A stretch of 64,000 nt of DNA, from positions 55,030 through 119,029 of the forward strand of contig URZY01000005.1 in assembly GCA_900552495.1 (NCBI GenBank), written 5' to 3'. Positions 9,290 through 15,791 of this stretch are shown here, one piece after another. The translations under genes were made by a program, and so were the position numbers. Within the stretch, counting starts at the first letter, position 1; each line of letters opens with the position of its first letter. A model generated the notes under the pieces. That model was not told the DNA's origin, ran no database searches, and saw nothing but the letters and a program-made list of their open reading frames with translations. Origin of the DNA: an uncultured Mycoplasmatota bacterium (GTDB taxonomy: Bacteria; Bacillota_I; Bacilli_A; RF39; UBA660).

Positions 9290-9308
9290 ATGAAAGCTCT
9301 ATTTTTTT
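9275..9308. terminator. Bidirectional intrinsic terminator between the SpoIID-like gene (+) and the last T7SS-locus gene (-)
   Basis: The hairpin AAAGAGCTTTC-TTAAAT-GAAAGCTCT is followed by TTTTTTT. Confidence 0.5.
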
Positions 9309-9508
9309 AGATTTGCCAGTACTTCATCGGCATCTTTATACAATTCAACAGTTGATTTTAGAAAGGTAGCATACCAGGTAACATTAGAAATAAATGTTTG
9401 TAACATATCTGCTCCTTTACTTTTAGCAAGATTATCAATAATGTCTGCATTATCAGATAATTCCTTAGAAATCTGAAGGATCTGATCATATGTAAATGAA
9501 CCTATCAT
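9299..9508 (-). CDS. Tiny helical T7SS-associated protein (69 aa) with a C-terminal YxxxD/E-like motif; candidate secretion substrate or partner
   Basis: It lies in an operon 3' of essC/yukD. The C-terminus ELYKDADEVLANL contains Y-x3-D, as in Esx-type export signals. Its start overlaps the upstream stop as ATGA, indicating translational coupling. Confidence 0.35.
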   Translation of the reverse strand: MIGSFTYDQILQISKELSDNADIIDNLAKSKGADMLQTFISNVTWYATFLKSTVELYKDADEVLANLKK

Positions 9509-9789
9509 TCTCCTAATACACCTACTTCCGGTTGTTGATTATCAGAAAGTTGCTCTGTCACAGGGGGAGTTAAATTCTCTTCGGCTACGGTTGGAGTGGC
9601 ACTTGCAGTTGGCGTTGTTCCAACGGCAGAGGCATTAAATAATTTGGCTGCTTCAACAACTGTTGTCTTTGATTCTTCAATACTATCAGCCATATTTATG
9701 TTATCTTGATCCTTCCAACCCTGTTTCATTTTAGCTGTTATCTCAAAAATTTTATTTACAGCTAAAACAAATTGATTATAATCTGACAT
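9505..9789 (-). CDS. Small helical protein (94 aa), WXG100-sized, with a disordered Thr/Pro/Ala-rich tail; candidate Esx-like substrate
   Basis: At 94 aa it is typical of the WXG100 family. It contains a helix-loop ...KMKQGWKDQD.... It is directly downstream of yukD-like and coupled to the 69-aa ORF. There is no canonical W-x-G motif. Confidence 0.3.
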   Translation of the reverse strand: MSDYNQFVLAVNKIFEITAKMKQGWKDQDNINMADSIEESKTTVVEAAKLFNASAVGTTPTASATPTVAEENLTPPVTEQLSDNQQPEVGVLGE

Positions 9790-9798
9790 AAGTACCTC

Positions 9799-14667: not shown

Positions 14668-14782
14668 CCCGGTTACTATTCCTATTCTATATGTAATTAT
14701 AACTTTTTTTCTATATTTTTACAACATATATTTTCTCTTCTTCAAAGGAAAACTTAATATATTACTAATTTTTATGTAATTA

Positions 14783-15451
14783 TTATAATTGCGTCTTTTC
14801 TAAATAAACTTTGTCATTCTCAGACAAATAAATACCATATAAGCCTTTTTGAGGGCAGGTAAAGATTAAAGTAGGTTGTTTAGATATTGATGGCTCTTCA
14901 GGGACTGGTTTATCAGTAGGTTCAGTAGGTAAGGTGGGAGATGGTATTTTTTTAAAGGTTAAACCAGCATTATTAATAATATTTATTGTGTCATCTATCC
15001 AAAGACATTCTTCGGGCTTTTTACCATTATTTATAGAATAATTACCATTACTATTTTTATGCCAGCCAGTTCCAGTAAACTTTCCTCTCCCACATTCTAT
15101 ATGGCAATGATTACCAGTTGCCTGACCAGTTGTACCTTCACTGTAGAATGCTTCTCCACGATTGATTTTTTTCCCTACAAAAAGATTACTTACATTGTTA
15201 GAATGAGCTAACATAATTGTCATGTAGTCAATTGTGCCATCAGGATATTCAACCTCATCAACACTTTCTAACCAAACTTCATTTGCATCTTGAGTATAAA
15301 TCTTTTTTATAATTCCTGTAAAAGGAGCAACTAAGGTGGAAATCGCTTGATCACTACCGGCTTCATCGATAGCATAACTATCAATATGACTACCTATTCC
15401 ATATGTTTGTGTAATACGCATATTTTTACTTGGATAAAGGGGTTTTTCCAT
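14783..15451 (-). CDS. Peptidase M23 (LytM/lysostaphin-like) family peptidoglycan endopeptidase lacking a signal peptide, with a Pro-rich linker and short C-terminal module
   Basis: GSHIDSYAIDEAG, MLAHSN and TTGQATGNHCHIECG align with the LytM motifs H..D, LYAHLS and STGNSTGPHLHFE. The N-terminus has no hydrophobic leader. Confidence 0.6.
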   Translation of the reverse strand: MEKPLYPSKNMRITQTYGIGSHIDSYAIDEAGSDQAISTLVAPFTGIIKKIYTQDANEVWLESVDEVEYPDGTIDYMTIMLAHSNNVSNLFVGKKINRGEAFYSEGTTGQATGNHCHIECGRGKFTGTGWHKNSNGNYSINNGKKPEECLWIDDTINIINNAGLTFKKIPSPTLPTEPTDKPVPEEPSISKQPTLIFTCPQKGLYGIYLSENDKVYLEKTQL

Positions 15452-15791
15452 TCTCTCGTTCCTCCTTATTAATAATATTTTCTGTAGAAATTGTCACTTT
15501 ATTTCTACTAATTATGTCTGTGTAAGATGCCAGTTTCCCTTCAAGCGTTTTATATAGTGAATCAGCTCCAAGAAAGGAAAATAAACCTACCCATAAACTG
15601 GTTGGAAATGTAATATCTGTGAAGGACATGCAAAAAATTATTCCAATTAACATATTTACTATAAAAGAATAAATGGGTAGACTCTTACTACTTTTAAATT
15701 GTTTTTTTGTTTTTTGAATTAAAGCACAGGTTATTGTACTTAGAGCTATTGAAATTATTAGTAATTCTTTTAAGAATTCAAAATTAAACAT
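15426..15791 (-). CDS. Holin-like small membrane protein (3 TM helices, charged C-terminus)
   Basis: The gene is 121 aa. The TM helices lie at approximately aa 8-26, 38-58 and 63-77, followed by a Lys/Glu-rich C-terminal tail. It overlaps the start of the M23 peptidase gene by 26 nt. Confidence 0.4.
   Translation of the reverse strand: MFNFEFLKELLIISIALSTITCALIQKTKKQFKSSKSLPIYSFIVNMLIGIIFCMSFTDITFPTSLWVGLFSFLGADSLYKTLEGKLASYTDIISRNKVTISTENIINKEERENGKTPLSK

Follow-up and report, generated by a model that had tools for sequence, protein, structure and literature searches.

A candidate minimal type VII secretion locus with EssC, a ubiquitin-like protein and a shortened WXG100 pair in uncultured gut Bacilli

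Introduction

Type VII secretion systems (T7SS) of the T7SSb kind, such as Ess of Staphylococcus aureus and Yuk/Yue of Bacillus subtilis, are the described machines closest to the locus reported here. Every characterised T7SSb needs EssB, EsaA and EssA, and there is as yet no agreement on the component that forms the channel or on the parts that the machine cannot do without. Garrett, Higginson and Palmer (2024; PMC11217815) defined the types T7SSc to T7SSj from RefSeq. According to these authors a WXG100 protein (TsxA), a ubiquitin-like protein (Ubl; TsxB) and an ATPase (TsxC) are almost universal, and each subtype adds others; none of the ten published arrangements is without extra components. 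The simplest of them, T7SSg, comprises two WXG100 proteins, TsgB, the FHA-less ATPase TsgC and a DUF5050 protein, with neighbouring Tad genes (PMC11217815). For B. subtilis, Oka et al. (bioRxiv 10.1101/2025.01.24.634720) describe that YukB, the counterpart of EssC, forms the central channel, that the FHA and DUF domains of YukB clasp YukD between them and that dimers of YukC (EssB) dock on FHA2. Here we analyse a locus at positions 9299-15791 of a 64-kb window (the whole stretch of DNA studied, from contig URZY01000005.1 of an uncultured Mycoplasmatota bacterium). In this locus a gene row on the minus strand encodes an EssC, an 85-aa Ubl (p85) and two small proteins of 94 and 69 aa (p94 and p69).

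From sequence comparison, the best reading of the row essC-p85-p94-p69 is a minimal T7SS arrangement that adds to the published T7SSb to T7SSj. We consider it rather probable that the row is a vertically inherited, functional T7SS module made of only the three near-universal components. Like the T7SSb of S. aureus and B. subtilis, it has an EssC of the TIGR03928 family with tandem FHA-like domains, two transmembrane helices, a stalk/DUF region and three FtsK-type ATPase domains, of which D1 is of the active type and D2 and D3 are degenerate. It also has a free-standing protein of the predicted YukD/EsaB fold and small proteins which appear to derive from WXG100. Unlike T7SSb, there is no EssB/YukC, EsaA/YueB or EssA/YueC near essC, the gene order is essC-Ubl-A1-A2 instead of esxA-esaA-essA-esaB-essB-essC as in S. 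aureus, and in place of one homodimeric EsxA there are two non-identical small proteins with about 52-69 structured residues and without an intact WXG motif. With T7SSg (Acetivibrio/Paenibacillus) the locus has in common two WXG100 paralogues, a Ubl and an ATPase (PMC11217815). However, the EssC of the window has the FHA domains that TsgC lacks, and T7SSg further contains TsgL, a DUF5050 beta-propeller, and always adjoins Tad pilus genes; neither DUF5050 nor Tad families were found in the neighbourhood of the window locus. Markers of T7SSc, e, f and j (kinase, PPM phosphatase, DUF6382-FHA, AAA+) were likewise absent among the precomputed Pfam matches, in the window neighbours and in the sister island described below. 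Judged by its predicted gene products, an FHA-bearing T7SSb-like EssC with A1, A2 and the Ubl (B) only, the arrangement matches none of the ten published ones.

EssC and its partner proteins

The 1530-aa protein is by sequence a bona fide T7SSb-type EssC. It scores 1014.4 bits against the NCBIfam model TIGR03928 (T7_EssCb_Firm, cutoff 778.4) over model positions 4-1293 of 1296 and merely 50 of 1566 bits against the FtsK model, and its closest solved relative is B. subtilis YukB (E = 1.8e-122). Pfam recognises FHA (49 bits, residues 114-173) and FtsK_SpoIIIE. From the sequence itself we read an FHA1-like region at residues 1-100 and the two hydrophobic helices at about residues 262-322. Comparison by eye with the FHA consensus shows that most of the residues for phosphothreonine binding have been exchanged (G-S for G-R, S-K-Q-Q for S-R-x-H and Y-G for N-G), and in FHA2 the replacement is as in T7SSb EssC. 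The Walker A motif GMTGSGKSEF and the Walker B motif LFIISDEFA of D1 are invariant in 30 sequences. Identity across the lineage amounts to 91% in D1, 85% in FHA1 and 51% in D3; such a difference between D1 and D3 would be expected of a motor in D1 and of substrate recognition by the C-terminal domain.

The ratio of nonsynonymous to synonymous substitution rates (dN/dS) of essC is 0.04-0.08 against five relatives and lies between 0.02 and 0.22 across all four core genes, with saturated dS. The low ratios exclude a decaying remnant. The original prediction had allowed for such a remnant with an inactive EssC, and this is ruled out by the purifying selection together with the invariant D1 motifs. 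It had also pointed to a GTG start of essC without an early ATG as an oddity. The description is correct, as the first in-frame ATG is codon 62, but the start is not odd. In all relatives the protein begins with M-I-V-R-L-I-K-K three codons into the listed open reading frame (ORF), mostly with GTG and in three cases with ATG, and a Shine-Dalgarno sequence (GGGGTGAT or GGTTGGTGAT) stands at the same position 5′ of the gene. Since all relatives begin there behind this conserved element, the real start is almost certainly the fourth codon of the listed ORF, GTG 14658, and the predicted product has 1527 aa.

Of the operon's proteins, the ubiquitin-like p85 is conserved best (78-95% identity). It has no Pfam or NCBIfam match at E < 0.1 and no PDB sequence match, and hhalign comparisons with YukD and EsaB are not significant; the control sequences YukD and EsaB match PF08817 in the same kind of Pfam search. 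The AlphaFold2 model of p85 (predicted local distance difference test score, pLDDT, of 76.5) has a beta-grasp fold. In Foldseek it matches ubiquitin-like proteins and the Ubl domain of ESX-5 EccD, and the closest solved structure is YukD. The protein ends in RIILI and has no Gly-Gly. We therefore have a predicted beta-grasp protein of about 80 aa, without C-terminal Gly-Gly, whose gene adjoins the T7SS ATPase gene. The earlier call of the 85-aa gene as YukD/EsaB-like is upheld by predicted fold and context but not by the family hidden Markov models. Profile searches with p85, and also with p69, returned only close unannotated relatives among the 120 matches listed for each.

A sister island

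A second system in a sister lineage (L037 and L043-L045) proved informative for the small proteins. Its EssC is 47% identical to that of the window over the full length including the FHA region and scores 1046.6 bits against TIGR03928. Its gene order, EssC, an 82-aa Ubl, a WXG100 protein of 101 aa and a second one of 102 aa (P0328), matches essC-p85-p94-p69. The sister Ubl is 35-38% identical to p85 (hhalign 99%), and the counterpart of p69 scores 79.5 bits against NF035934. Thus the two systems share the order essC-Ubl-A1-A2 and the lack of EssB, EsaA and EssA nearby; in the sister island EssC is the sole detected homologue of a T7SS membrane component. They differ in that the sister has full-length, Pfam-positive WXG100 proteins (101 and 102 aa), DUF4176 genes, a helical protein of 80 aa and a 1272-aa protein with a 98-aa partner, and in that it occupies another chromosomal site (Table 1). 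The sister island is compact and flanked by housekeeping genes, with genes for RNase HII and a lactamase_B-fold protein at the upstream edge and a two-component system at the downstream edge. The 1272-aa protein has no significant family match and is, by its context, a candidate effector. DpaA is present in the sister lineage. We found no description of this island in the literature searched.

Two relatives of the window locus carry upstream of essC (L029 2923-4922 and L022 1533-3532) a gene whose product of about 585 aa shows a Cys/His/Asp pattern like that of transglutaminases, and one for an 81-aa partner. The larger protein is homologous to the C-terminal domain of the sister candidate effector (26% over 139 aa, E = 1e-8) and the smaller one to the 98-aa partner. 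From these similarities the pair may be a toxin-immunity module common to both systems.

A shortened WXG100 pair

The original prediction had counted a WXG100 protein (EsxA) as missing and had mentioned two tiny helical proteins without linking the two. Profile searches, hhalign and phmmer indicate that the missing EsxA is these two proteins, p94 and p69, a WXG100 pair in miniaturised form, whose components were overlooked because they are truncated. In Pfam, NCBIfam, PHROGs and profile searches of PDB sequences the small proteins of the operon gave nothing significant, and hhalign against five classical WXG100 proteins was not significant for p94 and p69. They were identified only through an exhaustive search of representative proteins and through structure prediction. 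Neither is missing from any relative, and purifying selection acts on both (dN/dS 0.05-0.22 for the two genes, 0.08-0.21 for p94).

The AlphaFold2 model of p69 is a helix-turn-helix hairpin (pLDDT 96.3) with helices at residues 7-31 and 36-68. In Foldseek searches of the PDB the WXG100 proteins rank at the top, with non-significant E-values of about 1, which is suggestive only, and a faint match (E = 0.02) is seen to NF035934, the pore-forming ESAT-6 family. A profile search of 1.8 billion representative proteins retrieved 96 representatives, almost all of 68-81 aa, and reached the 102-aa protein P0328 (E = 2.2e-4), which is a Pfam WXG100 protein at 49 bits. Aligned by hhalign (96.4% probability, E = 1.2e-9), the p69 profile and P0328 differ by a single clean gap of 25 residues which covers exactly the tip of the hairpin with the W-x-G motif. 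Reciprocally, phmmer searches from the sister WXG100 proteins find p69 orthologues in 27 loci, the best with 1.3e-7.

p94 consists of a helical hairpin of about 52 residues, whose turn carries a conserved Trp (W-K-D-Q-D-N), a variable linker and a C-terminal tail h-x-x-L-G-[EQ]. Its profile aligns with its positional counterpart, the sister 101-aa WXG100 protein (hhalign P = 4.8e-4), with the Trp in register (W-K-D-Q-D-N vs W-K-G-A-D-N). The score of 26.6 compares with 10.3 ± 2.5 for shuffled sequences, and 0 of 200 shuffles reach it. Here, too, phmmer from the sister proteins finds orthologues, in three loci (1.8e-4 to 1.5e-3). Comparisons of p94 or p69 with the other sister paralogue are weaker, and the pairing of p94 with paralogue A and of p69 with paralogue B is therefore specific. 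Each of the two is thus homologous to a bona fide WXG100 member.

Like members of the WXG100/ESAT-6 family (PF06013; NF035934) the two proteins are helix-turn-helix hairpins encoded beside a T7SS ATPase gene. Family members have about 100 aa and a W-x-G turn, whereas p69 has 69 aa with the turn segment deleted, and p94 (64-104 aa in total across aligned relatives) has W-K-D at the turn, W-P-N in relatives, that is the Trp without the Gly. p94 corresponds to about residues 19-70 of the ancestor, the tip half, and p69 to about residues 7-36 plus 62-94, the open-end half. Dimers of WXG100 proteins such as ESAT-6/CFP-10 and S. aureus EsxA have their two hairpins antiparallel, so the retained halves of p94 and p69 would face each other. 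By this analogy the complementary losses suggest a four-helix bundle shortened from one end in a coordinated way.

The Leu and the Gly of the p94 tail are kept through synonymous codon changes, which points to a constraint at the protein level. A parallel is the C-terminal signal of mycobacterial EsxB (CFP-10) that binds EccC (PMC11217815): p94 also has a flexible tail with a short conserved end motif, and no part of the window EssC varies more than its C-terminal ATPase domain. The motif h-x-x-L-G-E/Q, seen here at the level of sequence, is however unrelated to that of EsxB.

The linker of p94 (residues 53-88; window 9526-9633, minus strand) varies considerably. In the clade of the window it is a low-complexity stretch of 30-50 residues rich in Pro, Thr and Ala (proteins of 83-104 aa), and in most relatives it has about 10 residues (proteins of about 65 aa). 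The C-terminus is L-G-E in the window, L003 and L019, and L004, L005 and L021 have an I/V-E-E end.

Distribution of the locus

The identical EssC protein occurs on six metagenomic contigs. A scan with one genome per species yielded 29 loci with EssC proteins of 68-92% identity, all in metagenome-assembled genomes of uncultured gut bacteria, which are labelled Bacilli, Tenericutes, Mycoplasmatota, 'Mycoplasma sp.' or Candidatus Faecimonas. The order essC, 85-aa gene, gene for 64-104 aa, gene for 69-77 aa and then a convergent SpoIID gene is found in 28 of the 28 informative loci. Beyond SpoIID follow, where the contig is long enough, a phospholipase C-like gene, Abi_2, HtrA and CorA. The p69-family members that have diverged furthest are also found in this slot, downstream of rplM-rpsI. 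All together, the four-gene core occupies the same chromosomal slot in more than 30 related genomes of uncultured gut Bacilli. Tabulating the gene order, as had been proposed, thus shows that the position is fixed across 28 species-level genomes and among more distant members too.

The genes found upstream of essC in the relatives encode a ZIP transporter (on the opposite strand), a CwlD-like amidase, a PHP protein or various enzymes, and none is a T7SS gene. Where the amidase, ZIP and PHP genes stand between the holin-like pair (see below) and essC, we regard them as housekeeping or synteny neighbours unrelated to the T7SS.

In the window and 10 kb beyond its ends (contig positions 8.8-83.6 kb) there is no Pfam match to YukC/EssB, EssA, EsaA, YukD or WXG100, and the lack of essB, esaA and essA near essC that had been noticed is borne out over this range. 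The only ORFs of at least 900 aa in the window are EssC and UvrA. For EssA, the neighbouring genes have no Pfam match on record, and the 121-aa membrane protein is a holin homologue. Nor were EssB, EsaA or EssA found up to 10 kb on either side of essC in 28 related loci or in the sister loci. Our literature searches found no T7SS reports for Erysipelotrichales or Mycoplasmatota, and these taxa are not named in the supplements of PMC11217815.

Discussion

By analogy with the cryo-EM structure of B. subtilis YukB-YukD and with the work on EsxAB-EccC, we suggest that the system could operate in the following steps. EssC would assemble into a hexamer in the membrane and form the channel. p85 would be clamped between the FHA and DUF domains of EssC, for which the grip of YukB on YukD provides a concrete model, and would stabilise assembly-competent protomers. 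p94 and p69 would combine to a half-length antiparallel four-helix bundle, p94 providing the tip half and p69 the open-end half. The flexible tail of p94 with its L-G-[EQ] end could then dock on the variable ATPase domain D3, and ATP hydrolysis at the invariant D1 site could power the export. Such a machine probably works without homologues of EssB, EsaA and EssA, and the gene content suggests that EssC, a Ubl and a shrunken WXG100 pair may be enough for a type VII machine. We propose tentatively, with slightly more doubt than confidence, that EssC and its ubiquitin-like clamp are a complete translocon, that a half-length Esx heterodimer, made by complementary truncation, is the minimal cargo or activator and that the locus represents an eleventh arrangement beyond T7SSa-j. 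The original prediction had offered a minimal or alternative T7SS as one explanation. This part gains from the fixed position of the four genes, the purifying selection and a sister island without EssB, EsaA and EssA; its view that WXG100 is missing does not hold.

Several points weigh against our proposal. EssB, EsaA and EssA are required in every experimentally studied T7SSb, according to PMC11217815 and PMC13059805. EssC keeps its tandem FHA domains, with FHA1 conserved at 85%, and as FHA2 is the docking site of YukC/EssB in B. subtilis, a partner that has escaped notice is plausible. Why EssC should retain well-conserved FHA domains without EssB is in our view the main question, and the docking of YukC on FHA2 makes it sharper. 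p94 and p69 have no Pfam WXG100 match and stay below the NCBIfam thresholds, and the link of p94 to WXG100 is a modest one with a pairwise P of about 5e-4. The conservation of the p94 tail could in part reflect the ribosome-binding site of p69, as the ATG-GAG-GAA in the 3′ end of the p94 gene doubles as this site. The pairing of p94 with p69 and the signal role of the p94 tail we infer by analogy. Finally, we inspected about 75 kb of this contig and up to 10 kb to the left and right of essC in the relatives; the organisms are uncultured, and our case for a minimal machine is a comparative one.

These points lead directly to the strongest competing explanation, an ordinary T7SSb with a split cluster, in which the genes for EssB, EsaA and EssA, and possibly for effectors, lie at other places of the genome. 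It would account for an EssC which scores as a T7SSb equivalog and keeps the FHA domains that bind YukC in B. subtilis (bioRxiv 10.1101/2025.01.24.634720), and it agrees with the need of all tested T7SSb for the three proteins, as stated in PMC13059805; moreover the inspected share of each genome is small. Yet T7SSb core genes are normally contiguous with essC, and here they are absent near essC in more than 30 genomes from two lineages whose EssC proteins are only 47% identical, as well as from the 75 kb inspected of this contig. The sister island even carries genes for candidate substrates and DUF4176 genes beside an essC whose product is its sole detected T7SS membrane homologue. We consider a split cluster unlikely, though it deserves to be taken seriously. 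Far less probable still is that the locus does not belong to a secretion system at all and is a decaying remnant or an FtsK-like translocase for DNA or for forespore-related transport. The locus does lie between genes for sporulation-type cell-wall enzymes, Spo0A is encoded in the window and no effector gene is adjacent. On the other hand essC evolves under strong constraint (dN/dS 0.04-0.08) with invariant Walker motifs in D1, its product matches TIGR03928 over the full length and above the equivalog cutoff in contrast to the poor FtsK score, the partner genes encode a Ubl and apparent WXG100 derivatives, and the sister system has DUF4176 genes and the 1272-aa candidate effector.

A different idea is that the genes for a holin-like protein and an M23 endolysin-like protein between rdgB and essC are parts of the system, which open the wall as EssH does and replace EsaA and EssA. 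In the clade of the window the pair lies directly 5′ of essC on the same strand without a terminator-like site in between. The proteins match holin and endolysin families of PHROGs, both genes are under purifying selection and there are no other phage genes near them. PMC13059805 gives the precedent of a dedicated cell-wall hydrolase, EssH, for the T7SSb of S. aureus. However, among the 17 genomes with a complete rpsI-essC interval the pair is present in 11, both genes are missing in 5 and the holin-like gene stands alone in 1. The pair touches essC only in the clade of the window and is mostly split from it elsewhere by the ZIP gene on the opposite strand and the CwlD-like amidase gene. It is absent from the sister system, and essC has a promoter-like site and a conserved 5′ leader of its own. 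On this distribution we reject the pair as an obligatory T7SS part and hold its replacement of EsaA and EssA to be improbable. An EssH-like wall-opening role is possible by analogy, though the distribution does not require it.

If our proposal of a self-contained minimal module is right, this would argue for EssC and its Ubl partner as the functional core of a T7SS. With only four proteins and a cargo of about 70 aa, the module would then be a very small target for structural biology, and it would reveal how much of a WXG100 protein can be lost while the protein is still retained. It would also place T7SS in the reduced-genome uncultured gut Bacilli that public records label as Mycoplasma or Tenericutes.

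Locus layout and neighbouring genes

All ORFs of the original prediction lie at the predicted coordinates on the minus strand (Table 1), and the 94-aa and 69-aa genes overlap as it had said. The boundaries it gave were also found, namely rdgB/Ham1 and SpoIID, identified by Pfam and NCBIfam, as flanking genes and terminator-like hairpins at 15849-15830 and 9277-9300. Its account of the content was right for the four-gene core and left the holin (121 aa) and M23/endolysin-like (222 aa) genes in 14783-15791 undescribed.

Table 1. Features of the essC locus in the window and location of the sister island
Feature	Position	Strand	Remark
essC (TsxC)	listed ORF 10075-14667 (1530 aa); with the conserved start GTG 14658, 10075-14658	-	T7SS membrane ATPase
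p85, ubiquitin-like protein (TsxB, EsaB/YukD equivalent), 85 aa	9799-10056	-	starts 18 nt past essC
p94, putative mini-WXG100 paralogue A, 94 aa	9505-9789	-	starts 9 nt past the p85 gene
p69, putative mini-WXG100 paralogue B, 69 aa	9299-9508	-	4-nt overlap (ATGA) with the p94 gene
Holin-like membrane protein, phage-type, 121 aa	15426-15791	-	neighbour, not a constant part of the T7SS core
M23/LytM-like endolysin-type peptidase, 222 aa	14783-15451	-	neighbour, not a constant part of the T7SS core
Shine-Dalgarno-like GGGGTGATC	14662-14670	-	5′ of the essC GTG start; read from sequence
Sigma-70-like promoter candidate TTGTAA-17-TATAAT for the essC operon	14696-14724	-	consensus scan, 10/12 matches
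Bidirectional terminator-like hairpin, 9-bp stem on both strands	9277-9300	.	terminator scan; common to the essC operon and the convergent SpoIID gene
Terminator-like hairpin 3′ of rdgB, 5′ of the holin gene	15830-15849	-	terminator scan
Sister T7SS island	L037 5423-14990; L043 4612-15273		essC-Ubl-WXG100-WXG100-DUF4176-80 aa-1272 aa-98 aa-DUF4176

The endolysin-like gene and essC are separated by 115 nt. The promoter candidate in this gap is weak evidence, as the number of such sites in the region is not above that in shuffled controls. The 5′ leader of essC (TATAGAATAGGAATAATAAC...GGGGTGAT; window 14668-14700, minus strand) is nearly identical in L003-L007, L019 and L021 despite saturated synonymous sites in the coding sequences. 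It has no Rfam match, and there are no Rfam elements in 8000-17500; its conservation suggests that it may serve as a promoter -10 region or as a regulatory element.

The holin-like protein matches the holin family phrog_1299 (E = 8e-8) and Pfam Phage_holin_5_1 (E = 2e-4). Its 222-aa partner matches endolysin and metallo-endopeptidase families of PHROGs (1e-12 to 1e-3) and weakly Pfam Peptidase_M23. It has an HxH motif (GNHCHIE) and no signal peptide, and it ends, past a low-complexity linker, in a conserved module of about 25 residues (LIFTCPKKGLYGIYL...). The dN/dS of its gene is about 0.1. In the 11 genomes which have it the pair always stands at the same place, after rpsI, and it may be a domesticated lysis or secretion cassette.

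A row of genes farther upstream, rpoA-rplQ-ecfA-truA-rplM-rpsI, is conserved except for three genes without family match (128, 303 and 115 aa; window 17652-19363, minus strand) inserted between truA and rplM. In the middle of the 303-aa protein lies a hydrophobic hairpin, and its tail is long and charged. Related genomes have ORFs of similar size in this slot, and the distant members L035 and L036 have no insert. We considered the three genes as hidden T7SS partners and rejected this, as distant members keep the four-gene core without them. The second of the two ECF-type ABC ATPase genes in this region (20175-20960, minus strand) has a degenerate Walker A motif, GLTGTNLNG, without GK[ST]; an adh_short gene and a gene for a 388-aa protein of unknown function lie between rplQ and the ABC pair.

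The window has a G+C content of about 30%, and its remainder consists of housekeeping genes (ribosomal protein operons, rpoA, secY, glycolysis genes, uvrAB and spo0A). Genes of the sporulation type are kept in this lineage labelled 'Mycoplasma sp.' or 'Tenericutes'. Spo0A (Response_reg and Spo0A_C) is encoded at 43569-44426 on the minus strand and the SpoIID homologue at 8219-9289 on the plus strand, and most relatives have a CwlD-like amidase gene just upstream of essC. On its other side the locus adjoins an island of defence genes, which comprises GmrSD_N (1769-3403) and Abi_2 (6138-7085) within window positions 1769-7085. The island continues beyond the left end of the window (L039 1-7408) with a Gabija-like pair (AAA_15/OLD-TOPRIM and UvrD helicase), HipA, Fic and the type I restriction protein HsdR.

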